61,902 nucleotides of DNA from NCBI GenBank assembly GCA_036732045.1, contig DAINDD010000001.1:60828-122729 (forward strand). Direction: 5' to 3'. Below, piece by piece: positions 43,967 through 60,388 of this stretch. This DNA is from Chloroflexota bacterium (GTDB taxonomy: Bacteria; Chloroflexota; Dehalococcoidia; SM23-28-2; RBG-16-64-32). The first letter of the stretch is position 1. Each line of letters starts with the position of its first letter. Under the pieces are notes generated by a model. That model worked only from the letters and a program-made list of their open reading frames with translations, had not been told where the DNA came from and made no database searches. The translations under genes and the position numbers were made by a program.

Positions 43967-44617
43967 TTAGCTGGGCCGCAGGAACTTCGGAAGCAAGTCC
44001 TCGGGGCCGCTCGGCACCGTGTAGTGATCGTTGATCTCCGGCTCCTCGTAGCCCGCGATGTAGCGCCAGGTGCGGATGCCGACGACCGGCACGCCCATCT
44101 GGCGGCAGAGGCTCAACGCCTCGTCGCCTTTGCCCACCGGCACGTAGAGATAGAGCGGCGCTAGGTCCGCATACGGCAGCCACTCCCAGCGCGCCACCGC
44201 CTCGCGTACAGTCTCGTTCGTCTCGACTTCAGCCACGATGCGGCAGTTGTTCTCCGGGTGCTGCACTACCACGATGTCCGGATATGCGACGAGGCCGCCC
44301 GGCATCTCCACACCCATCGCGCGGATAGGGTGGTTCACGTATGTCTTGTAGTCGCGGTACTTCTCCGTCGGGAAGCCGAAGCGCAGGCGCGCGATGTCCT
44401 TCATTGCGCGGTCATGGATCAGCTCCCGCGATGCCGTCCGCGATGCGTAGGTGGGTGGCACGTAAGCGGCCGGTTGGCCAGCCGCCGGTGCCGGCCCCAC
44501 CATCTGCGAGAGGAGCGGGCTCTGCGGCATGCTGCCCTTCAGGTGGCTCAATGCCTCCTGCACCGGGTCGTTGGCGCTCGTCGTTGGTGGCGCCGGCGTC
44601 TTCGTGTCTTCGGCCAT
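43967..44617 (-). CDS. Hypothetical protein with PD-(D/E)XK-like motif
   Basis: Pro-rich N-terminus; YPDIVVV...IVAEVET; ATG at 44617. Confidence 0.7.
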   Translation of the reverse strand: MAEDTKTPAPPTTSANDPVQEALSHLKGSMPQSPLLSQMVGPAPAAGQPAAYVPPTYASRTASRELIHDRAMKDIARLRFGFPTEKYRDYKTYVNHPIRAMGVEMPGGLVAYPDIVVVQHPENNCRIVAEVETNETVREAVARWEWLPYADLAPLYLYVPVGKGDEALSLCRQMGVPVVGIRTWRYIAGYEEPEINDHYTVPSGPEDLLPKFLRPS

Positions 44618-44813
44618 ACTCGCTTGCTCCGGGTGATGTGGCTGTTTTCCGAAGTATGGCGGACGCGCCTTCGATAGAGCAAGAAGCGAAGATGTCGCGC
44701 TTGACCCCCGATGTTTGTTTTGTGATATTTGACACAAAGGAATCCCGTTGTTCCCCAGCATCGCACAACGCACCCTCCGATCTATCACGCGAGACGTCTA
44801 CCGGTAGCGCGTC

Positions 44814-45761
44814 ATGGCGACCACGCTGGCCGGCAGGGCCCCCGACGAAGGTGGTATCTTCGCTCGCCTGCGAGCCTCCTTCGATCTCCGCTACTACGCC
44901 GCCGCCACCGCCATCGCCACCTACGGGCTGATCGTCCTCGGGGGCACGGTGCGAGCCACCGGCTCCGGTGAGGCCTGCCCCGACTGGCCGCTCTGCAAGG
45001 GAAACGTGGTGCCGCCGCTGGAGGCGAAGGTCTGGGTCGAGTTCTCGCACCGGCTGATGGCGTCTGTCGTTGGCTTTCTGATAGCCGGCCTCGTCTACGC
45101 GATCTGGCGGCGCCGCAAACAAGACCCGCTGCTCTGGCGTGTCGGCATCCTCGCCGGCGTTTTGCTCGCCCTGCAAATCATCGTCGGCGGCATCACCGTC
45201 GATACGCAGACAGCCGCGGGTGTCGTAGCCATCCACCTCTCGATCGCCCTCACACTGCTCACCACGCTTATCTTCATCACCGCGCGGCTTTTCCGCACCG
45301 AGGACCGTCCGCTCGTCAGGCTTGAGGTGCTTCCGTGCATTGTGCTCGCCGGCGTCTTCGCGTTGGTCGTCACGGGCGTCTTCGTCTCGCAGAAAAACGC
45401 CGGGCTGGCGTATCCCGACTGGCCGCTGTTCAACGGCGGTGTCACGCCGTCGTCGTCGGAGGCGGGGCAGCTCCACTACGCCCATCGCATCGTCGCGGGC
45501 AGCGTCGGGCTGCTCTTCCTGGCGCTGTTCGTGCAGGCCGTCCGCCGTCATGCCTCGCCCAAGGTAGTCTGGCTGCTGACCGGCGCCGGCGTGCTGTTCG
45601 TCGCGCAGGCGCTGCTCGGCGCGGCCAACGTCTGGCTGGAGCTGGCCACCTCCGTCCGCATCGCGCACCTGGCCCTAGCCTCTGCCGTGTGGGCCGTGCT
45701 AGTGTTCACGATGGCGTGGGCCTACCAGAACGGCCTTCGTCTGACGAAGGGAACCTCCTGA
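44814..45761 (+). CDS. ctaA: Heme A synthase (COX15/CtaA)
   Basis: GSGEACPDWPLC, EFSHR, AIHL, LHYAHR, RIAHL; eight hydrophobic segments. Confidence 0.9.
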   Translation: MATTLAGRAPDEGGIFARLRASFDLRYYAAATAIATYGLIVLGGTVRATGSGEACPDWPLCKGNVVPPLEAKVWVEFSHRLMASVVGFLIAGLVYAIWRRRKQDPLLWRVGILAGVLLALQIIVGGITVDTQTAAGVVAIHLSIALTLLTTLIFITARLFRTEDRPLVRLEVLPCIVLAGVFALVVTGVFVSQKNAGLAYPDWPLFNGGVTPSSSEAGQLHYAHRIVAGSVGLLFLALFVQAVRRHASPKVVWLLTGAGVLFVAQALLGAANVWLELATSVRIAHLALASAVWAVLVFTMAWAYQNGLRLTKGTS

Positions 45762-45763
45762 CC

Positions 45764-46670
45764 TTGGCGACGATCACCACTACCACCGCCACTGCCGCGC
45801 GCGACATCCGTGGAGTGATCTGGTCGTACATCCGGCTCACGAAGCCGCGGATCGTCATGCTGCTGGTCATCACGACGATCCCGGCGATGATGCTGGCCGA
45901 AGGCGGCATGCCTTCTGCCTGGCTGATGCTGGCGACGGTTTTCGGCGGCTCCGTCGTGGCGGGCGGCGCCAACGCCCTCAACATGTACTTCGACCGTGAC
46001 ATCGACCAGATCATGGTGCGCACGCGTGTGCGGCCGGTGCCGTCTGGACAGGTGGACCCGGAAAAGGCCGCGATCTTCGGGATAGTGCTCGGCGGCGCGG
46101 GCTTTGCCTTTATGCAGGTCTTCGTGAACCCGCTCGCGGCGTTCCTCACGATTGGAGCGCTGGCCTTTTACGTCGTCGTATACACGCTCATCCTCAAGCG
46201 CTCGACGCCGCTCAACATCGTGATCGGCGGCGCGGCGGGCGATGCCGCCGGTCATCGGCTGGGCTGCCGTCACTGGCTCCGTCAGCGTCGAAGCCCTGCT
46301 GATGTTCGCCATCGTCACGCTCTGGACGCCGCCGCACTTCTGGGCGCTTTCCCTCAACTACAGCAGCGACTACAAGCGCGCCGGCGTGCCAATGCTCCCC
46401 GTCGTCAGCGGCATCGATGAGACCAAGCGCCAGATCCTCCTCTACTCTTTCGCCCTGGTCGCGGCGACGATTGCGCTGGCCTTCCTGAGCGACGCCGGCC
46501 TGTTCTACTTGGCGTCCGCCGCCGCGCTGGGAGCCGGGTTCTTGTACTACGCCGCGAAGCTCTGGCGCTCCGGCGCGCTCCGCGATGCGACGGGCCTCTT
46601 CCGCTACTCGATCCTCTATTTGGCGCTGCTCTTCGGCGCTATCGCACTTGATGTGCTGATCCGGACGTGA
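45764..46670 (+). pseudogene. ctaB: Protoheme IX farnesyltransferase (heme O synthase) with frameshift at about 46241
   Basis: LTKPRI, DRDIDQIMVRTRVRP, YTLILKRSTPLNIVIGGAAG then MPPVIGW, WTPPHFWAL, DYKRAGVPMLPV in another frame. Confidence 0.85.
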
Positions 46671-46725
46671 GGCCAGCGTTGACTTACGCGTATTCGGTAT
46701 CTGATCATACGGGCGAAGTCCGACC

Positions 46726-47622
46726 GTGAGCGAAGTCATCAGGAGACTACAAGCCAACGCGCCGCGATTCGTGCCGGCGCTGTTCCTGCTGCTACTGATC
46801 GTCCTCCTGCTTACCGGCTGCCAGGCGCACACTCCGCAAAACACGTTTGACGCCGGCGGCGAAGTCGCCCGCAAGCAGCGCAACCTGTTTTACCTATCGA
46901 TGTGGCCCGCGATCGGCGTCATGATCCTCGTCCTCGGCGGCATCATCGTCATGTGTCTGCGCTTTCGCGAGCGCGACCCGAACTCCCGCCCGCCAAAGCA
47001 GATCGAGGGCAACACCCGCCTCGAGCTCACCTGGACGATTCTGCCGGCCATCCTGCTCCTGGGCCTCGGCGTGCCGACGGTCGGACTCATCTATGACCTT
47101 GGGCGTTCACCCGACGCCAACGCCTACTACATCAACGTCACGGCGCAGCGGTACAGCTTCTCTTTCGAATACCCTGACGCCAAGGACAATCAGGGCAACG
47201 CTCTCTTCGTACCGGCCGACCCGCACATCCCCGTCGGAAAGCAGGTCGCGTTCCGCCTGCATTCGATCGATGTCATCCACAGCTTCTGGATCCCGCGGCT
47301 CGGCGGCAAGCTAGACGTCGTACCGAACGAGAATAACGTCCTCTGGCTGGTCGCGGACAAACCTGATACGTTCGCTGGAGAGTGTGCCGAGTTCTGCGGG
47401 CTTAACCATGCCAACATGCGAATGACGATCCACGCCGACTCACAGACTGATTTTGACGCCTGGATAGCCGCCCAGCTGGCGCAGGCAAACGCTACGCCCA
47501 TACCCACGCCGACGCCAGCTGCGAGCGCGGCGGCTTCCGGCAGCCCGGCAGTGAGCGTTGCCGCGACCACGCCGACGCCAACACCCGTGCTGAGCCTGAC
47601 GCCGGTAGCCACAGGGAGCTAG
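46726..47622 (+). CDS. ctaC: Cytochrome c oxidase subunit II (lipoprotein, CuA, no cytochrome c domain)
   Basis: Lipobox LLTGC; LELTWT; DVIHSFW; CAEFCGLNHANM; T/P-rich tail. Confidence 0.95.
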   Translation: MSEVIRRLQANAPRFVPALFLLLLIVLLLTGCQAHTPQNTFDAGGEVARKQRNLFYLSMWPAIGVMILVLGGIIVMCLRFRERDPNSRPPKQIEGNTRLELTWTILPAILLLGLGVPTVGLIYDLGRSPDANAYYINVTAQRYSFSFEYPDAKDNQGNALFVPADPHIPVGKQVAFRLHSIDVIHSFWIPRLGGKLDVVPNENNVLWLVADKPDTFAGECAEFCGLNHANMRMTIHADSQTDFDAWIAAQLAQANATPIPTPTPAASAAASGSPAVSVAATTPTPTPVLSLTPVATGS

Positions 47623-47625
47623 ACG

Positions 47626-49551
47626 ATGGCCACGATCGCCGCCCCGCGGACCAGCCCTCTCGCCCAGGCGCTGCGGGATGCACGCGCGTCAGCGGAGCAC
47701 AACAAGATCCTGAACTGGATCGCCACCGTCGACCACAAGAAAATCGGCGTTCTCTACGGAATCTCGGCCTTCATTTTCTTCTGCATCGGCGGTGTCGAGG
47801 CGCTCCTCCTCCGCGCCCAGCTCGCCACGCCGAACGCCAGCGTGCTCAACGCCGACGAGTACAACCGTCTCTTCACGATGCACGGCACGACGATGGTCTT
47901 CCTCGTCGTGATGCCGCTCAGCGCCGCCTTCTTCAACCTGATGGTGCCGCTGATGATCGGCGCCCGCGACGTCGCCTTCCCGCGCCTTAACGCTTTCAGC
48001 TACTGGACGTTCCTCGCCGGCGCTATCTTCCTCAACGCCAGCTTCTTCACCCGCAACGTCTTCAGCGGCCAGCTTGGCGCGCCGGACGGTGGCTGGTTCG
48101 GTTACGCGCCGCTAAACCTGCGCGCATTCACGCCGGGCCACGGGATGGACTTTTGGGCGCTCGGTCTCAATATCCTGGGTGTCGCCTCGCTGGCCGGCGG
48201 CTTCAACTTCATCGTCACCATTCTGAACATGCGCGCCCCCGGCATGTCGCTCTTCCGCATGCCGGTCTTCATCTGGATGACGCTGGTCACCTCGTTCTTG
48301 ATCATCTTCGCCATGCCGGTGATCGCGGTGGCCCTGTTCGAGCTTTCGTTCGACCGTTTCTTCGGCGCCAACTTCTTCAACCCGGCCGCCGGCGGCAACC
48401 CTCTCCTCTGGCAGCACATGTTCTGGCTCTTCGGCCACCCGGAGGTCTACATCCTCATCCTGCCGGCCTTCGGCATCATCTCCGAGGTATTGCCGGTCTT
48501 CGCGCGCAAGCCGCTCTTCGGCTACCCGTTCGTGGTCTTTTCCGGAATCGCCATCGGCTTCATGAGCTGGGGCGTCTGGGTGCACCACATGTACACCACG
48601 GGCCTGGGCACGGTAGCCAACTCCGCCTTCGGAATCTCGACGATTCTGATCGCCATCCCTACCGGCGTCAAGGTATTCAACTGGATGGGCACCATGTGGG
48701 GCGGCTCGATCCGTTTCAAAGCGCCCATGATGTTCGCTATCGGGACCGTCGCCATGTTCACAATTGGCGGTCTCTCTGGCGTCACGCACTCCATGGTGCC
48801 GGCGGACTACCAGCAGCAGGACACGTACTACGTCGTCGCACACTTCCATTACGTGCTGTTTGGCGGCGCGATCTTCGGGCTCTTCGCCGGGGTCTACTAC
48901 TGGTTCCCCAAGTTCACCGGCCGTTTCCTCAACGAAACGCTCGGCCATATCCACTTCTGGATCATGCTCATCGGCTTCAACCTGACCTTCTTTCCTATGC
49001 ACATGTCCGGGCTGCTCGGCATGCCGAGGCGCATCTATACGTACCCGTCCGGCTATGGCTGGGACTTCTGGAACCTGATCTCCAGCATCGGCGCCTTCAC
49101 GATCGCTCTTTCCGTGCTGATCTTCATCATCAACTTCCTGATCAGCGTCCGCCGCGGCAAAGAAGCGCCTGACGACCCCTGGGACGCGCGCACTCTGGAG
49201 TGGACGATCCCCTCGCCGCCGCCGCACTACAACTTCGCCGAGATACCGGTCGTCCACGCCCGCGACGAGTTCTGGCACCGCAAGTATCAGGAGGACGAGC
49301 AAGGCAACGTCACTCCGGTGCTGGCCGGCGCCGCGCACGCGCCTGAGGCGGCTCACACGGGCTACGGCGGCCACGACGAGCACGATATTCACATGCCTTC
49401 GCCGTCGTTCTTCCCGCTGATGGCATCGCTTGGCTTCCCGTTCATCGCCGTCGGCGTCATCTACGACTACGCGCTGGTGCCGGTTGGCGCGGCGCTGTTG
49501 CTCATCGGCCTCTTTGGCTGGGCGCTGGAGCCAGCGACGGAAGAGGCATAG
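47626..49551 (+). CDS. ctaD: Cytochrome c oxidase subunit I, A-family
   Basis: FTMHGTTM, AFPRLN, WLFGHPEVYILILP, WVHHM, VAHFHYV, GMPRR; two extra C-terminal TM helices. Confidence 0.98.
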   Translation: MATIAAPRTSPLAQALRDARASAEHNKILNWIATVDHKKIGVLYGISAFIFFCIGGVEALLLRAQLATPNASVLNADEYNRLFTMHGTTMVFLVVMPLSAAFFNLMVPLMIGARDVAFPRLNAFSYWTFLAGAIFLNASFFTRNVFSGQLGAPDGGWFGYAPLNLRAFTPGHGMDFWALGLNILGVASLAGGFNFIVTILNMRAPGMSLFRMPVFIWMTLVTSFLIIFAMPVIAVALFELSFDRFFGANFFNPAAGGNPLLWQHMFWLFGHPEVYILILPAFGIISEVLPVFARKPLFGYPFVVFSGIAIGFMSWGVWVHHMYTTGLGTVANSAFGISTILIAIPTGVKVFNWMGTMWGGSIRFKAPMMFAIGTVAMFTIGGLSGVTHSMVPADYQQQDTYYVVAHFHYVLFGGAIFGLFAGVYYWFPKFTGRFLNETLGHIHFWIMLIGFNLTFFPMHMSGLLGMPRRIYTYPSGYGWDFWNLISSIGAFTIALSVLIFIINFLISVRRGKEAPDDPWDARTLEWTIPSPPPHYNFAEIPVVHARDEFWHRKYQEDEQGNVTPVLAGAAHAPEAAHTGYGGHDEHDIHMPSPSFFPLMASLGFPFIAVGVIYDYALVPVGAALLLIGLFGWALEPATEEA

Positions 49552-49559
49552 GAGGACCC

Positions 49560-50150
49560 GTGGCGGCAGGCACAACCCATCTAGAAACGTCCACTGGCCT
49601 GGACAACCGGAAGCTGCTGATGTGGCTCTTCCTCGGCTCGGAGTGCCTCTTCTTCGGCTCGCTCATCGCCGCCTACCTTCTGTACCGCGGCCACAGCCTC
49701 AACGGCCCCTATCCGCAAGATCTAGTCGATATCCCCTTCACGTCGGTCAGCACCTTCGTCCTCCTGATGAGCAGCGTGAGCATGGTGCTGGCCCTGGCTT
49801 CCATCCAGCGGGGCAACGTGCGCAACATGCAGATCTGGCTCTTCACCACGGCTATTCTCGGAGCGCTCTTTATCTCCGGCCAGGTGTACGAGTTCACGGA
49901 GTTCAGCCAGCGAGGCCTGAGCCTCCACACCAACCTCTTCGGTACGACGTTCTACGTGCTCACGGGATTCCACGGCGCCCACGTCACAATCGGTGTACTG
50001 ATCCTGCTCTCGCTTCTCACCTATTCCCTGCGCGGCGGCATCCAGCAGAAGAACTCTCTGAACATCGAGCTTGCCGGGCTTTACTGGCACTTCGTCGACA
50101 TCGTTTGGATCGTCATTTTCACGCTGATCTATCTGATTCAGCCTAAGTGA
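49560..50150 (+). CDS. ctaE: Cytochrome c oxidase subunit III
   Basis: WLFLGSECLFF, FYVLTGFHGAHV, LYWHFVDIVW. Confidence 0.95.
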   Translation: MAAGTTHLETSTGLDNRKLLMWLFLGSECLFFGSLIAAYLLYRGHSLNGPYPQDLVDIPFTSVSTFVLLMSSVSMVLALASIQRGNVRNMQIWLFTTAILGALFISGQVYEFTEFSQRGLSLHTNLFGTTFYVLTGFHGAHVTIGVLILLSLLTYSLRGGIQQKNSLNIELAGLYWHFVDIVWIVIFTLIYLIQPK

Positions 50151-50160
50151 GGGGTTGCAC

Positions 50161-50520
50161 ATGACACTGGCTGATTACAGAAGGCAGCGCGGCGAGCCGA
50201 TCATCCCGGAGGCGGAGGCACAGGCCGCCGAGGCGCACGTCGATCACCACCCCGGCGTCCTGGAGTACACGCAGATCGGCCTCGTGCTGTTTTTCATCAC
50301 CTGCTTCGAGGTCGGCATGTACTACGTCGGCCTCAGCCACAACGCACTCGTGGCGGTCTTGCTGGTGATGTCGCTGGTCAAGTTTACGCTTGTCGTGCTC
50401 TGGTTCATGCACCTGCGCTTCGATAGCCGGCTCTTCTCCACGCTCTTCCTGTTGGGCCTGCTGACGGCCGCCGCCGTCTTCACCGTCGTCATCTCCGCGC
50501 TGCGCGGAAATCTCGTCTGA
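50161..50520 (+). CDS. ctaF: Cytochrome c oxidase subunit IV
   Basis: LFFITCFEV, KFTLVVLWFMHL; operon position. Confidence 0.85.
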   Translation: MTLADYRRQRGEPIIPEAEAQAAEAHVDHHPGVLEYTQIGLVLFFITCFEVGMYYVGLSHNALVAVLLVMSLVKFTLVVLWFMHLRFDSRLFSTLFLLGLLTAAAVFTVVISALRGNLV

Positions 50521-50565
50521 GGAGTTCCTGCCCGCGCAAGCGCCGGCCAGGAGCAGGAGACAGCC

Positions 50566-51441
50566 GTGATTCCGATACCGCTACACGTCGCGCCGACGGG
50601 CCCCTGGTACGCCTGGCACCTTCATCTGGACGTCATCACGCTTTGCCTCGGCGTCCTGGTCGCCTACTGGTATGCCGTCACAGTCTGGCGCCCGCACATT
50701 CCGGACGCCGGGCGCGTCATGCGGCGCCAGGTCGCCAGCTATTGCTCAGGCGTAGCCGTTGTCTTCCTCGCCGCCGGCACGCCCATCCATGACATCGGCG
50801 AGAACTATTTGCTTAGCGTCCACATGACCCAACACCTGCTGTTCAGCCTCGTAGCTCCTCCGCTGCTGCTGGCCGGCGTACCGACCTGGCTATGGGAAGC
50901 CCTCTTCATCCGCAAGGGAGTCCTGCCGGTCATGCGCCGCGTCCTTCACCCGCTGGTGACGTTCGGCTTCTTCAACGCGGTGCTCGTCGTGACGCACCTG
51001 CCGGCGTCGATGGACTTCACGCTCAACCACCATTGGTTCCACTTTTTCGTGCACGTCTTCCTCGTCAGCGCATCGCTGATGATGTGGTGGCCGGTGATCA
51101 CCAACGTGCCGGGCCTTCCGCACCTGACGTACCCGTTCCGGATGATGTATCTCTTCTTGCAGTCGCTCGTTCCGTCGGTGGTAGCGGCGTTCCTGACGTT
51201 TGCTACTGGCCCTATCTACAGCTTCTACGCCACCGCGCCGCGCATCATGGGTATCTCGGTTGTGACTGACCAGCAGCTCGGCGCGCTCGTCATGAAGGTG
51301 TTCGGCAGCCTGATCCTCTGGGGATTCATCGGTGTCTCCTTCTTCAAGTGGTACGCCAAGGAGGAGAGGGAGGCGAAGGGCCCAGCCTGGTCCGAGATCG
51401 AAGAAGAGCTTCGTGAGATCGGCGTCACGCCGCGCAAGTAG
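50566..51441 (+). CDS. ctaG: Cytochrome c oxidase assembly factor, caa3-type CtaG
   Basis: SVHMTQHLL, APPLLL, LMMWWPV, DQQLGALVMK. Confidence 0.88.
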   Translation: MIPIPLHVAPTGPWYAWHLHLDVITLCLGVLVAYWYAVTVWRPHIPDAGRVMRRQVASYCSGVAVVFLAAGTPIHDIGENYLLSVHMTQHLLFSLVAPPLLLAGVPTWLWEALFIRKGVLPVMRRVLHPLVTFGFFNAVLVVTHLPASMDFTLNHHWFHFFVHVFLVSASLMMWWPVITNVPGLPHLTYPFRMMYLFLQSLVPSVVAAFLTFATGPIYSFYATAPRIMGISVVTDQQLGALVMKVFGSLILWGFIGVSFFKWYAKEEREAKGPAWSEIEEELREIGVTPRK

Positions 51442-51471: not shown

Positions 51472-51504
51472 AACAAAACGGGCGCCGGCAGTGATCGGCG
51501 CCCG
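51472..51504 (-). terminator. Rho-independent terminator of the cupredoxin-fusion gene
   Basis: Minus strand CGGGCGCCG-8 nt-CGGCGCCCG followed by TTTTGTTT. Confidence 0.7.
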
Positions 51505-51523
51505 CTGATTCGCGCTTCGGCTC

Positions 51524-52561
51524 CTACGAGACGACGAATGTCCCAAACATCTGCGTCGGGTGGAAGTCGCAGCGGAAGTGATACGTTCCCGGCGTCGCGA
51601 TCGTGAACGTCACCGTCCCGGTTCCGCCCGCTACCAGCTTGTTCGGCGTCGAGCAGGCCGTAGACTTGCCGTCTCCGGGGGAGCAGAAATAGGCGTCGGT
51701 CGGGCTCTGCTCGCTCGTCCCGCCGACGTCGATGTTGTGCACGGCGGCACCGGTGTTCTTGAGCTGGAACGTGACGGCCTGGCCCGCCTTCACTGGGATG
51801 TTCGTCGGGTTATCCTGCCCGTTGTACTTGATCACGATGTCTGCCAGATCGATCTCCTGGCTGCCGCCCGGCGAACCGCTTGCCCCGGGAGCCGCCGACG
51901 CCGCGGGCTGCGTTACCGCCGCTTCCGTCCCGTTGTCCTTCCAGGCGACGGCCCAGATCGTGCCGGCGACAAGCGCGATCGCTGCGATGCCAAGAATTCC
52001 GCCGATCTGCGCTCCTGATGCCCGCGGGTTGTTCGCCAGGTAGAACGAGACGAGCAGAACAAAGATCGCGATGCCTGCCGCCAGCGCAGTCGCATTGTCG
52101 CCGCGAATCTGCAGATAGATGCGTGAAAGGCCATAAATCATGAGCAGCGCGAAGGCCAGCACCCCCAGCGGGATCGCAATCGGCAGCACGACACGCTCAC
52201 GGGCCTGCTCGGCCTGCTCCGCCGGCTTCCACGACGACTCCGTACGCAGCGCTTCCATGTCCAGCACCTGCAGGCTGTCGGAGACCAGGATGCCGCGGTG
52301 CTTGCGCACGATGCTGGCCGCGTTCGGCTCGTTCGTCTCGTAACGCACGAGGCTGCCGTCGTCCGTCCACCGTGTCTCAACGACGACGAGGATGTTGCCT
52401 TCGTTATTAATCGAGCGCGTGAGCCGCAGGTCCCGGAAACCGACCTGGTTGCGCAGGAACTCCAGGTGCTGATCGAGCTCCGAGAGGAGGCCGTCCGCCG
52501 CGGACGCCTCCTCAAGCCGAGAGGCCGGAATCTGGAAGAGGATTGTCTGAATGTATTCCAT
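51524..52561 (-). CDS. ABM-like domain + transmembrane segments + type-1 copper cupredoxin fusion
   Basis: N-term GFRDLRLTRS...VVVETRW; three hydrophobic segments; C-term VHNIDV and YHFRCDFHPTQM. Confidence 0.8.
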   Translation of the reverse strand: MEYIQTILFQIPASRLEEASAADGLLSELDQHLEFLRNQVGFRDLRLTRSINNEGNILVVVETRWTDDGSLVRYETNEPNAASIVRKHRGILVSDSLQVLDMEALRTESSWKPAEQAEQARERVVLPIAIPLGVLAFALLMIYGLSRIYLQIRGDNATALAAGIAIFVLLVSFYLANNPRASGAQIGGILGIAAIALVAGTIWAVAWKDNGTEAAVTQPAASAAPGASGSPGGSQEIDLADIVIKYNGQDNPTNIPVKAGQAVTFQLKNTGAAVHNIDVGGTSEQSPTDAYFCSPGDGKSTACSTPNKLVAGGTGTVTFTIATPGTYHFRCDFHPTQMFGTFVVS

Positions 52562-52751
52562 GCGCGCTCCTGCGTAACTCCGGGCCCCGGCCGATTGGCG
52601 TAGGCCCGTTTGTAGGGAATATCACAAGGGGGTATGAGGGTCAAGCGCGATCTCATCATTTCCCCGCTCGTTCGCCTCCGGCGGAAGAGAGCGTGGGTGA
52701 GGGCAACGAGCGCTCGCCCGGTCTTAGTGTCGGTGCTACACTAAGTGCGCG

Positions 52752-57699: not shown

Positions 57700-57905
57700 A
57701 GCCCGCAGATTTTCACAGATGAGACACCGATAGGATCTTCTCTAGGCTGACGTCACCAGAGGATGAGCAACCCTTTGTGGGCCAATCTGCGACGACAATT
57801 CGAGCCAGTTGAGGAGCATCTGTGGTCAATCTGTGCGCATCTGTGGCCACAATAATCTGCGTCCAATCTGCCCGAATCTGCGACAATCTGCGTCGTCTTG
57901 CGGTT
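57700..57905. repeat. Cluster of short ATCTG(C/T)G repeats with inverted CAGAT copies
   Basis: GCAGATTTTCACAGATG at left; ATCTGTG, ATCTGCG, ATCTGCC repeated at 57818-57891. Confidence 0.6.
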
Positions 57906-57915
57906 AAATGAACGT

Positions 57916-59712
57916 ATGACATCACTCCACTTCTCCCCACGGCCGAACCGCGCGCACGAGATCGCCTGGCGCGAGTGGGGCGAAGACGCTTTCCGGGAGG
58001 CCCGCGAGGCGAACAAGCCCGTCCTGCTCTCGCTCTCCGCCGTCTGGTGCCACTGGTGCCACGTGATGGACGAGACGTCGTACTCCGATCCGGGTGTCAT
58101 CGCCTTCATCAACGAGCACTACGTCCCCGTCCGTGTCGACAACGATCAGCGACCGGACGTCAACGCTCGCTACAATATGGGCGGCTGGCCGACGACGGCC
58201 TTCCTCACGCCGGACGGCGAGATCCTCGCTGGCGCCACCTACATCCCGCCGGAGCAGATGCTGGAAGCGCTGCCGAAGGTCTACACGCACTTCGTCTCCA
58301 ACCGCGATGAGGTCTCGGAGAAAGCGGTAGAGCTGCGGGAACGCCGCGAGGCCGCGTACACCGGCAGCGGCGGGGAGCTGACCCCCGCCATCTTCGACGG
58401 TGTCGTGCGGAGCGTCGTCAACGCCTACGACCCGCTCTACGGCGGCTTCGGCGAGGCGCCCAAGTTTCCGCACACGGACTCGATCGACCTGCTGCTGTAC
58501 GCCAGCCGCCGCCTGGGGGATCCGGACCTTCTGCACATGGCCCGCAAGACGCTGGAGATGATGTATGCCGGCGACGTCTATGACCACGAATGGAACGGCT
58601 TCTTCCGCTACGCCACCCGCCGCGACTGGTCGGACCCGCACTACGAGAAGATGCTCGAGGACAACGCGGGTCTCCTCCGCAACGCGTGCCATCTGTACCG
58701 CATCACCGGCCGCGAAGAGCACGCCGAGATCGCACGCGGCATCATCGCATACGTCGAGTGGAAGCTGCGCGACCCGGAGCGAGGCTACTTCTACGGCTCT
58801 CAGGACGCCGACGAGGAGTTCTACAAGCTCGACGCCGAGCGACGCAAAGAACACGACGAGCCGTACATCGACCGAACTTGCTACACCTCCTGGAACGCCC
58901 AGATGATCTCGGCCTACCTCGAGGCGTCATGGACGCTCGACCGCCGCGATCTGCTCGGCGCTGGCCTCCAGGCGCTGCTTTTCCTCTGGGACGAATGCCG
59001 AGACTCGTCGAGCGGATCGATGTACCGTTACCACGACGGCTCGCCGCACATCGTTGGCCTGCTCGGCGACCAGGCGTACACCGCCCGTGCGCTGCTCGAC
59101 GCGGCTGAGGTGACGGGCGACTCGCAGTACGTTGACCGCGCGAGCGAGTTGGCGGAGCTGCTGAGCGGCCGCTTTCACGACGACGCCAACGGCGGCTTCT
59201 GGGACGTCTGGGACGAAGCGCCGGACGTCGGTCGCCTCCGCGAAAGGCAGAAGTCGATCCAGGACAACGCCATCTGCGCCGAGGTCTTCTTGCGCCTCCA
59301 TCACCTGACGCGGGAGCCTCGCTACCTCGATATCGCCCGCGCGGCCGTCGAATCGTTTGCGGGCACGGCTGACCGCATGGGGTATTTCGCCGCGAGTTAC
59401 GCCAGGGTGGCCGATCTGCTGCTCAACCCGCCCGCCGAAGTGAACATCGTCGGCTCGCCGGAAACAGCTGGTTCGCTGCACCGTGCCGCGCTCCTGCTGG
59501 ACGCGCCGCAGCGCATCGTCCAGCTGCTCGATCCGGTGCGTGATGCTGCACGGCTCGCCGCACTCTCCCTGCCGATTGAGCCCGCTCCCGCCGCCTACCT
59601 TTGTGTCGGCACATCTTGCTCTGCGCCTGTGACGTCCGTCCCCGGCCTGCTGGAAGCCACGCGCCAGATGCAGCAGATGTCCGGCCCGCGGCAGGTCTCC
59701 CCCGGTGACTGA
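57916..59712 (+). CDS. Thioredoxin-domain protein, YyaL/SSP411 (DUF255) family
   Basis: WREWGEDAF, LSAVWCHWCHVM, GGWPTT, GGFGEAPKFP, PHYEKMLEDN, SWNAQMI. Confidence 0.92.
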   Translation: MTSLHFSPRPNRAHEIAWREWGEDAFREAREANKPVLLSLSAVWCHWCHVMDETSYSDPGVIAFINEHYVPVRVDNDQRPDVNARYNMGGWPTTAFLTPDGEILAGATYIPPEQMLEALPKVYTHFVSNRDEVSEKAVELRERREAAYTGSGGELTPAIFDGVVRSVVNAYDPLYGGFGEAPKFPHTDSIDLLLYASRRLGDPDLLHMARKTLEMMYAGDVYDHEWNGFFRYATRRDWSDPHYEKMLEDNAGLLRNACHLYRITGREEHAEIARGIIAYVEWKLRDPERGYFYGSQDADEEFYKLDAERRKEHDEPYIDRTCYTSWNAQMISAYLEASWTLDRRDLLGAGLQALLFLWDECRDSSSGSMYRYHDGSPHIVGLLGDQAYTARALLDAAEVTGDSQYVDRASELAELLSGRFHDDANGGFWDVWDEAPDVGRLRERQKSIQDNAICAEVFLRLHHLTREPRYLDIARAAVESFAGTADRMGYFAASYARVADLLLNPPAEVNIVGSPETAGSLHRAALLLDAPQRIVQLLDPVRDAARLAALSLPIEPAPAAYLCVGTSCSAPVTSVPGLLEATRQMQQMSGPRQVSPGD

Positions 59713-60388
59713 CCCCGAACGTTACCTCCGCAAAGCCCGCGAAAGCCTCGCCTCCGCGAAGGCGGACGTCGCCGCCGGCCGCTACAACTCCGCCGCCAAT
59801 CGCGCCTACTACGCCGCCTTCCAGGCCGCCGTTGCGGCGCTGATCCACAACAGCATTCAGCCCGCCAAGGCATGGCAGCATAAGTTCGTTACCAGTCAGT
59901 TGTCAGGTAAACTGATAAAACGAAGAAAGCTGCTACCGAGCGTGCTGACGGCGATGCTCGATGACCTCTTCCGCTTTCGAGCACTAGGAGATTATGAGCC
60001 GGAGGACGTCTCGAAGACCGATGCCAGCCGGGGCGCAAAGAATGCAGCAAGATTCATCCAGGAGGTAGATCGCGCCGTGAAGCTCAGCACGATTAGGGAA
60101 GCGTCCGCGGAATACGCTGCTAGCGTCGCTGCCGCGCCGTCGCTGGAGTTGGCAGAGCGACGGATTGACGAACTGGAAGCGCTTATTCGGACGAAGTACC
60201 CGGAAGCGCAATTCGGGGTAATCCAGCTCGGATCGAGCGACTACCGCCTCAACGTGTACATCAAGCAGCGCAGCAGCTACAGTGCCTTCTCCAGGCTACT
60301 TGGAAGCCGAACAACCGACATCCTCGTCGATGACGATATCTGGATCGTCGTCATCCCTCATCCCCTGAGCGAACTACGCAACAACTGA
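59705..60388 (+). CDS. HEPN-domain protein with extra C-terminal domain
   Basis: YLRKARESL, YNSAANRAYYAAFQAAVAAL, H59, FRFRALGDY; about 100-aa C-terminal extension; lower GC. Confidence 0.8.
   Translation: MTDPERYLRKARESLASAKADVAAGRYNSAANRAYYAAFQAAVAALIHNSIQPAKAWQHKFVTSQLSGKLIKRRKLLPSVLTAMLDDLFRFRALGDYEPEDVSKTDASRGAKNAARFIQEVDRAVKLSTIREASAEYAASVAAAPSLELAERRIDELEALIRTKYPEAQFGVIQLGSSDYRLNVYIKQRSSYSAFSRLLGSRTTDILVDDDIWIVVIPHPLSELRNN

Follow-up and report, generated by a model that had tools for sequence, protein, structure and literature searches.

The stretch of DNA analyzed here (the window, 61,902 nucleotides of Chloroflexota contig DAINDD010000001.1) carries a cta operon for an A-type heme-copper oxidase and, adjoining it on the opposite strand, a gene that joins an ABM-fold domain to three transmembrane helices, a linker, and a cupredoxin. 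This fused protein, which we call type A to set it apart from related forms described below, is the subject of our analysis, and its features are collected with those of the operon in Table 1. The open reading frame (ORF) is a genuine gene. It opens with an ATG, its G+C content at third codon positions (0.84) matches that of the adjacent genes, and the N-terminus MEYIQT is common to all 24 aligned homologues, which are 56–92% identical to the window protein. A preliminary description of this DNA had the gene facing the oxidase operon. It does adjoin the operon, in the precise sense that it runs tail to tail with ctaG across an 82-bp spacer; this spacer holds a terminator-like hairpin directly past the stop codon, between the convergent gene ends.

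Table 1. Coordinates of the fused gene, its domains and signals, and the neighboring oxidase operon, numbered from the first nucleotide of the window.
Feature	Coordinates	Strand	Basis
Type A gene: ABM-fold domain, three transmembrane helices, linker, and cupredoxin; 345 aa	51524..52561	(-)	ORF, third-position G+C, homologues
Ribosome-binding site AGGAG, 5 nt before ATG	52567..52571	(-)	Sequence
ABM/ferredoxin-like alpha+beta domain, residues 1–108, predicted cytoplasmic	52238..52561	(-)	AlphaFold2, Foldseek, conservation
Three transmembrane helices, residues 112–211, cores ~124–146, 157–177, and 185–206	51929..52228	(-)	AlphaFold2, conservation, charge
Linker, residues 212–235, acidic, Ala/Gly/Pro/Ser-rich, predicted flexible, outer side	51857..51928	(-)	Model confidence, identity
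Cupredoxin (putative type-1 copper), auracyanin-like, residues 236–345	51527..51856	(-)	PF13473, PF00127, Foldseek
His275 (HN motif, with Asn276), predicted N-terminal copper ligand	51737..51739	(-)	Invariant; aligns with the plastocyanin His ligand
Cys293...Cys303 pair in an inserted cupredoxin loop	51653..51685	(-)	Invariant in the main clade
Predicted copper loop Cys331-x2-His334-x3-Met338, CDFHPTQM	51548..51571	(-)	Invariant C, H, and M
Terminator-like hairpin: 11-bp stem, 9 G-C pairs, T-rich tail	51477..51506	(-)	Sequence
ctaA, ctaB (frameshifted), coxII, coxI, coxIII, coxIV, ctaG	44814..51441	(+)	Pfam, CuA motif CAEFCGLNHANM, synteny
CoxI C-terminal two-helix extension, residues ~557–641	49294..49551	(+)	BLASTP, hhalign, PF12270

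The ABM–transmembrane–cupredoxin architecture proposed in the preliminary description was borne out by Pfam for the cupredoxin, by an AlphaFold2 model of the full protein (built on the 24 homologues) for the helices and linker, and by Foldseek for the ABM fold. Other profile matches were set aside: a CopI-like copper-resistance protein was ruled out at 23 bits against an NCBIfam cut-off of 280, and matches to PPC, DUF4198, EamA, and others in Pfam all scored under the respective cut-offs and can be put down to the beta-sandwich or to hydrophobic helices.

For the N-terminal domain, AlphaFold2 gave a beta-alpha-beta-beta-alpha-beta topology over residues 2–104, and the domain modeled by itself reached a predicted local distance difference test (pLDDT) value of 90 and a predicted template-modeling score of 0.79. 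The top 50 Foldseek matches of this model in the PDB all fall within the ABM/dimeric alpha-beta-barrel (ABM-like) fold group; IsdI, Rv0793, SnoaB, IsdG, MhuD, and LsrG are among them, with a probability of 1.0, and the better matches have TM-scores of 0.6–0.65. The Pfam ABM profile (PF03992) matches the window domain over residues 21–75 at 14.8–17.6 bits, below its cut-off of 23.1, a threshold passed by two relatives, P0139 (25.3 bits) and P0162 (25.2 bits); 15 of 28 family members match at E ≤ 0.01. Our assignment of the window domain to ABM, which is the one first suggested, therefore rests on the predicted fold and on the relatives that pass the cut-off, not on its own Pfam score. When a narrow profile of the domain was run against the PDB, NDM-1 beta-lactamase (E ~0.02) outranked the ABM proteins; we discarded these matches as chance level. 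A broader family profile puts ABM proteins first, with IsdI, 1tz0, and 2ril as the best sequence matches.

This domain is the most conserved part of the protein, with a mean pairwise identity of 77% and 44 of 108 columns invariant, compared with 49% identity for the cupredoxin. Across all four of the domain architectures described below, Q5, G41-F42, G55, E62-T63-x-W65, L71, Y74, and M102 are kept, though only W65, Y74, and G55 are universal among representatives of the N-domain family. His32 and His88 are retained in only ~63% of these representatives; no His residue is conserved throughout them, and the subfamily alignment shows no other obvious conserved heme ligand. These residues bear on a further suggestion of the preliminary description, namely that the domain might bind or degrade heme as some ABM-fold proteins do, for which they give no support. 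The reference here is the Asn/Trp/His triad of IsdI, for which we assume the usual residue numbering and take the His to be the heme ligand. By hidden Markov model alignment, the position of IsdI Trp66 is occupied by Tyr74 in the window domain, and the top-scoring PDB chain for the broad profile is 4fnh, the W66Y mutant of IsdI, in which the family Tyr74 aligns at that position. Since Tyr74 stands at the catalytic Trp position and no His is family-wide, the IsdG-type triad is absent. Judging by these residues, we reject IsdG-type heme degradation for the domain, and with it the IsdG/HmoA-type function implied by an automatic annotation at JGI.

The helices that follow span residues 112–151, 155–177, and 183–211 in the AlphaFold2 model. 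None of them contains a His conserved in the alignment of 24 homologues, and there is thus no sign of a membrane heme or of a heme-based electron path across the membrane. Residues 211–232 have pLDDT values below 50 and are predicted to be disordered; the linker to which they belong is 34% identical among homologues and varies in length. The charge distribution in type A proteins, with about 4 K+R before the first helix and 5.5 D+E versus 0.5 K+R after the third, fits an N-terminus inside and a C-terminus outside the cell.

The C-terminal part is modeled as a beta-sandwich (residues 236–344) and is recognized over residues 241–344 by two Pfam families, PF13473 (Cupredoxin_1; E = 2e-10, 41 bits, cut-off 27) and PF00127 (Copper-bind; E = 3e-6, 28.1 bits, cut-off 21.2). 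The closest solved folds are auracyanin A, the Roseiflexus auracyanin, and auracyanin B (2aan, 6kol, and 1qhq; Foldseek E-values of 2e-7 to 1e-6, probability 1.0, 25–28% identity), in keeping with the auracyanin comparison drawn at the outset. This likeness holds mainly at the level of the fold: in a profile search of the PDB, auracyanin A (E = 1.1e-3) and auracyanin B (E = 4.7e-3) both scored more weakly than plastocyanin, and we therefore do not regard the domain as an ortholog of the Chloroflexia auracyanins. His275, Cys331, His334, and Met338 are invariant in 24 of 24 homologues, as are Cys293 and Cys303. The full set of type-1 copper residues in the preliminary description thus stands, with the loop spacing corrected from C-x2-H-x4-M to C-x2-H-x3-M, and so does its extra Cys pair. 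The window loop aligns with the C-x2-H-x4-M loop of plastocyanin with a one-residue gap. From these residues we expect the domain to bind copper at a type-1 site. Cys293 and Cys303 probably form a disulfide, and a conserved pair of this kind fits an oxidizing compartment; it is absent in L019, P0138, and P0148.

The cupredoxin part varies in several ways elsewhere in the family. Many members have two tandem cupredoxins, each with a full ligand set, as seen in P0152, P0154, and P0156 (type A) and in P0161, P0166, P0170, P0172, and P0180 (type B, see below). The ligand loop is mostly C-x2-H-x3-M and is C-x2-H-x2-M in L034, and some type B proteins have a C-x3-C pair instead of C-x9-C.

A search of 5.8 billion proteins with the fused protein returned 411 matches, of which the best 120 were nearly all full-length with 54–94% identity. 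The few homologues with a named organism among the matches listed were all from metagenome-assembled genomes (MAGs) of Chloroflexota/Dehalococcoidia, and the automatic annotations of homologues went at most as far as "plastocyanin/heme-degrading monooxygenase HmoA" or "cupredoxin domain-containing protein." When one genome was scanned for each GTDB species, 32 loci emerged, all in MAGs, and all 30 with a taxon in the title were Chloroflexota. We then mapped the neighboring proteins of the window onto these loci, 26 of which had flanking DNA sufficient to judge. The type A gene adjoins the cta operon in 23 of the 26. Of these, 22 have the arrangement of the window, with the gene tail to tail against ctaG, the last gene of ctaA-ctaB-coxII-coxI-coxIII-coxIV-ctaG; in the remaining one, L030 (44% identity), the gene comes first, on the same strand and directly upstream of coxII. 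Several loci carry insertions between nadE and the type A gene with the ctaG junction retained.

To place the N-terminal domain in a wider context, we compared its profile, seeded with the window protein, with 1.84 billion representative proteins. Only 66 were found at E ≤ 0.001, which marks out a narrow subfamily rather than ABM proteins at large; its motif is G-F ... G ... E-T-x-W-x5-L-x2-Y ... Q-V-x-D-M. Its members fall into four architectures. Type A, the form in the window, consists of the ABM domain, three transmembrane helices, and one or two cupredoxins, and is encoded next to the cta operon. Type B has a hairpin of two transmembrane helices ahead of the ABM domain, followed by one transmembrane helix and one or two cupredoxins; its gene lies after coxIII, and a database search places it in Tepidiformaceae, including the cultured Tepidiforma thermophila. 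Type C is a stand-alone ABM protein of ~106 residues encoded inside a cbb3-like oxidase cluster. Type D combines the hairpin with the ABM domain alone (181–217 residues) and is rare, with only nine clusters of such proteins, about 190 residues long, among the 5.8 billion proteins; in three loci of Dehalococcoidia MAGs (L041, L045, and L046), its gene directly follows ctaA-ctaB.

The hairpin of types B and D supplied the closest tie to the oxidase. CoxI of the window is 641 aa long and ends in a tail of ~85 residues, for which BLASTP (E = 8e-6) and profile-profile comparison with hhalign (probability 99%, E = 2e-18) both show homology to the hairpin at the N-terminus of types B and D. CoxI of T. 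thermophila ends at about residue 556 of the window CoxI and has no such tail, and a tblastn search with the tail in T. thermophila matched the start of the type B gene, not coxI. The operon of this species reads ctaA-ctaB-coxII-coxI (536 aa)-coxIII-type B (363 aa) and has no COX4_pro gene, so that the type B gene, which follows coxIII, takes the usual place of subunit IV; L037 and L040 have the same arrangement. What forms part of CoxI in one lineage thus makes up the N-terminus of the ABM-cupredoxin protein in another, and this speaks strongly for a place of the module on the oxidase. The CoxI tail also matches the actinobacterial subunit IV family PF12270 weakly (E = 1.6e-4), and the type D protein P0162 passes the Pfam cut-offs of both Cyt_c_ox_IV (PF12270; 29.0 versus 26.9 bits) and ABM. 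A COX4_pro subunit IV is encoded in the window operon as well (50155–50520), so that the window oxidase has two different elements of the subunit IV type. The window protein itself gave no match to the hairpin, whose signature is H-x-P-x-P-S-x-W-P ... G-W-x-x-E, and none to a Pfam family there. We considered type A as a circular permutation of type B and dropped the idea, as its first two transmembrane helices matched the hairpin with an hhalign probability of 4%.

These relationships also inform the topology. CoxI has its C-terminus on the cytoplasmic side; in types B and D, where the ABM domain comes after the hairpin, it should therefore be cytoplasmic, and the odd number of helices after the ABM domain, one in type B and three in type A, should place the cupredoxin outside. 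We accordingly infer an orientation with the ABM domain inside and the cupredoxin outside.

Type C allows the parts to be separated. The type C protein P0146 is encoded inside a ccoN-ccoO (FixO) cluster with cytochromes c and without a cupredoxin, and a stand-alone member with 45% identity shares two small neighbor genes with that cluster. Cupredoxins are found in the forms encoded with genes for CuA-type oxidases whose subunit II lacks a cytochrome c domain. With the stand-alone ABM protein in a cytochrome c-containing cbb3-like cluster that has no cupredoxin, the cupredoxin therefore goes with the CuA oxidase lacking cytochrome c. What remains the same across the four arrangements is the ABM domain, which is the evolutionarily constant, oxidase-associated element of the family.

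The stand-alone ABM loci (L049, 4594–11260; L050; L047/L048) have a composition of their own. The cluster comprises a 497-aa COX1, FixO/cytochrome c, three small membrane proteins, the ABM protein, a 155-aa protein made of a transmembrane segment and a beta-domain that lacks copper ligands, a cytochrome c, and an unusual COX1-like protein of 640 aa; nadE comes next. The small proteins of this cluster had no Pfam match.

The operon beside the type A gene encodes an oxidase whose subunit II has a CuA site and no cytochrome c domain. Among coding-like ORFs of ≥90 aa in the window, none has a heme c CxxCH motif; the single CxxCH in the window is the thioredoxin-type CHWCH of a DsbH-like gene. The term cytochrome-c-less, applied to the oxidase in the preliminary description, is accurate in that CoxII lacks the domain and that no heme c ORF is present, and it applies to the window alone. 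Leaving aside the cbb3-like cluster in which the stand-alone members lie, neither the window nor the ~10-kb flanks of relatives yielded c-type cytochromes or genes for complex III or alternative complex III (ACIII).

Taking these data together, we propose, with a probability of roughly 55%, that the protein is a lineage-specific accessory subunit of the A-type (aa3-like) oxidase in aerobic Dehalococcoidia that tethers an auracyanin-like donor near CuA. In this proposal, the cytoplasmic ABM domain would be joined by three membrane-crossing helices to a flexible acidic linker that holds the type-1 copper domain on the outer face. The copper domain would accept electrons from a quinol-oxidizing complex or another donor and hand them to CuA of subunit II, which itself lacks a cytochrome c domain, and would so fill the role that a fused cytochrome c domain has in caa3 oxidases. 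Both the transfer to CuA and a physical association of the hairpin-less window form with the oxidase are deduced here. Several findings weigh against the proposal. The window protein lacks the subunit IV-type hairpin, its first two helices being no nearer to it than the 4% given above, so that stable binding of type A to the oxidase is extrapolated from relatives and synteny. The type A gene forms a transcription unit of its own, which runs toward the operon and has a separate terminator-like hairpin. In L019, L022, and L026, the gene still neighbors nadE, but cta genes are missing from its vicinity. A single class supplies most of the loci, and their synteny reaches past the cta genes (nadE, iscA, and MTHFR), so that the adjacency may in part be plain inherited gene order and, taken alone, is moderate evidence for an oxidase link. 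Lastly, an electron-donor module has no explained need for such a highly conserved cytoplasmic domain.

Some of these same points would suit a free-standing, membrane-anchored blue-copper carrier resembling auracyanin B, which would diffuse laterally between a quinol-oxidizing complex (ACIII or bc-type) and the oxidase without being a stable subunit, its ABM domain merely dimerizing or stabilizing it. Auracyanins are the closest solved folds, the type A gene is a transcription unit apart with its own terminator-like hairpin, the oxidase-derived hairpin is missing from type A, and cta adjacency is lost in three loci. We nevertheless consider a mobile carrier unlikely, as the Tepidiformaceae module shares one polypeptide chain with a hairpin that belongs to CoxI in the window lineage, which argues for a fixed position; the ABM domain, moreover, is conserved far above the need of a mere dimerization handle and accompanies oxidase genes even without a cupredoxin. 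An assembly factor is, in our view, quite improbable. Its cupredoxin would deliver or hold copper for CuA/CuB, its ABM domain would bind heme O or heme A between CtaB/CtaA and CoxI, or both. The position of the type A gene against that of ctaG, a CuB assembly factor, would agree with such a role, as would the hairpin-ABM relatives that form the third gene of ctaA-ctaB (heme A pathway) operons with the structural cox genes elsewhere; some ABM proteins do bind heme, and IsdG, IsdI, and MhuD are among the top Foldseek and profile matches. However, the complete, invariant His-Cys-His-Met set with its HN motif is typical of electron carriers, whereas Sco and PCuAC-type chaperones have copper motifs unlike it. 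The ABM family, as seen above, conserves no obvious heme ligand, and the Tepidiforma protein stands in for what is a permanent structural part of the oxidase.

The preliminary description had left open whether the protein is a donor or a sensor. The tie to the oxidase has turned out stronger than that description could foresee, since the adjacency is conserved (23 of 26 loci) and the module is fused to the hairpin in the Tepidiforma relatives; of the two, the donor is therefore better supported, and the sensor found no support. A transmembrane redox or copper sensor, with the outer cupredoxin sensing and the cytoplasmic ABM domain relaying the signal, would make sense of one domain on each side of the membrane and of the high conservation inside the cell. 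Yet an output domain, be it a kinase, a cyclase, a DNA-binding domain, or another, is absent from the protein, the conserved neighborhood includes no regulator gene, and members with tandem cupredoxins or a fused oxidase hairpin suit electron transfer better; we judge this reading very improbable indeed.

Returning to the accessory subunit that we favor, two roles for its cytoplasmic domain seem most likely: it may dimerize or dock on the N-side of the oxidase, or it may bind heme or heme a. A bolder version, which we regard as doubtful, would have the domain bind a cofactor (heme, heme a, or quinone) and act as a working part of the oxidase rather than a passive handle. Examples would be an N-side module for heme a hand-over or quality control, or a regulatory cap over the proton-uptake side. 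If this were true, the protein would represent a previously unknown type of heme-copper oxidase subunit, one that spans the membrane and carries redox-active domains both inside and outside.

We also note several features of the window operon and its surroundings. The ctaB gene (~45780–46670, plus strand; heme O synthase, UbiA family) is split over two frames at 46230–46245, and at ~46237, within a G/C-rich run, it is 2 bp shorter than its counterpart in the closest relative, L005 (85% DNA identity): GGCGCGGC--GGGCG. The split stems either from an error in sequencing or assembly or from a genuine frameshift, and in the latter case heme O/A synthesis would be lost. In coxII (47130–47160, residues ~136–145), the Q-W-x-W-x-Y-E-Y motif reads Q-R-Y-S-F-S-F-E-Y. 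The first Trp of this motif, which we take to be the Trp at which electrons enter from cytochrome c (bovine W104/Paracoccus W121), is Arg in the window and in the loci of ten relatives, while three loci have Phe and seven keep Trp; only the window and its closest relatives lack the second Trp. The replacement may reflect a donor other than cytochrome c. Divergent from ctaA, at 43967–44788 on the minus strand, lies a gene for a conserved protein of ~210 residues with no Pfam match and an uncertain start codon in the window; homologues stand beside ctaA in L001 and L003, and its core, YPDIVVVQHPENNCxIVAEVETNE, resembles a PD-(D/E)xK nuclease-type motif. At 59705–60388 on the plus strand, a gene of 227 residues overlaps the 3' end of the DsbH/thioredoxin-like gene (57898–59712). 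The same position holds a HEPN-domain gene of 226–228 residues in L002 and L003 and an 85-residue gene without a Pfam match in L001. By its position and length, the window gene would be HEPN-like, and it appears to vary between close genomes.

The literature that we searched contains no description of the ABM–transmembrane–cupredoxin architecture or of an ABM domain on an oxidase subunit, and we found no ABM-fold domain described as an oxidase component either there or among the solved structures. The architecture had been called unfamiliar at the outset, and our searches of the literature agree with this, even though hundreds of copies that nobody has studied are present in databases. Soils, sediments, and hot springs widely harbor aerobic Dehalococcoidia, for whose respiratory chains gene lists are the only source. 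The present family suggests how a CuA oxidase without a cytochrome c domain may receive electrons, through a blue-copper module that belongs to the enzyme, and it brings to light a subfamily of the ABM fold that is found alongside heme-copper oxidase genes in four genetic arrangements. Tepidiforma isolates are oxidase-positive, the one point of the species paper that is relevant here (PMC10284905), and as the fused form occurs in the cultured, oxidase-positive T. thermophila, the hypothesis is directly testable.

Viewed against known systems, a membrane-tethered blue-copper partner of a terminal oxidase is of a familiar kind, and the cytoplasmic, oxidase-associated ABM subfamily is the genuinely new component. 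Known members of the ABM superfamily (PF03992; IsdG/IsdI/MhuD/HmoA) share the ferredoxin-like beta-alpha-beta-beta-alpha-beta fold with the window domain, but they are small and soluble and are not domains of membrane proteins attached to oxidase parts. Actinobacterial subunit IV (CtaF, PF12270) matches the type B/D hairpin and the window CoxI tail with its C-terminal half; it differs in having four helices and no soluble domains, and the window protein itself has no hairpin. The tethering of a donor for CuA to its oxidase is established in the cytochrome c domain of caa3 subunit II and in sulfocyanin (SoxE) of the Sulfolobus SoxM complex, and the logic proposed here is the same. In caa3, however, the carrier is a heme c rather than copper, whereas the copper module here resides on a separate polypeptide, or in the subunit IV position in Tepidiforma, and has a cytoplasmic domain attached.

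Auracyanins A and B of Chloroflexus and Roseiflexus are, like the window cupredoxin, type-1 copper proteins of Chloroflexota with His/Cys/His/Met ligands. They have been proposed as carriers from ACIII, with auracyanin B membrane-tethered and made in respiratory growth, and their genes lie outside the oxidase operon in C. aurantiacus (PMC3150298). Unlike the window protein, they have a short N-terminal anchor and neither an ABM domain nor a three-helix segment. AcoP is a cupredoxin with a transmembrane anchor that is tightly bound to the A. ferrooxidans oxidase (PMC4059628), and it resembles the window protein in that the cupredoxin is held by a transmembrane segment. It differs in its single N-terminal helix, its lack of a cytoplasmic domain, its green copper site, and its unusually long ligand loop, and it belongs to a proteobacterial acidophile. 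AcoP is encoded together with the aa3 oxidase genes (rus operon). Among membrane-anchored cupredoxins, AcoP, sulfocyanin, and auracyanin B have elsewhere a donor role like that which we propose for the cupredoxin of the fused protein.

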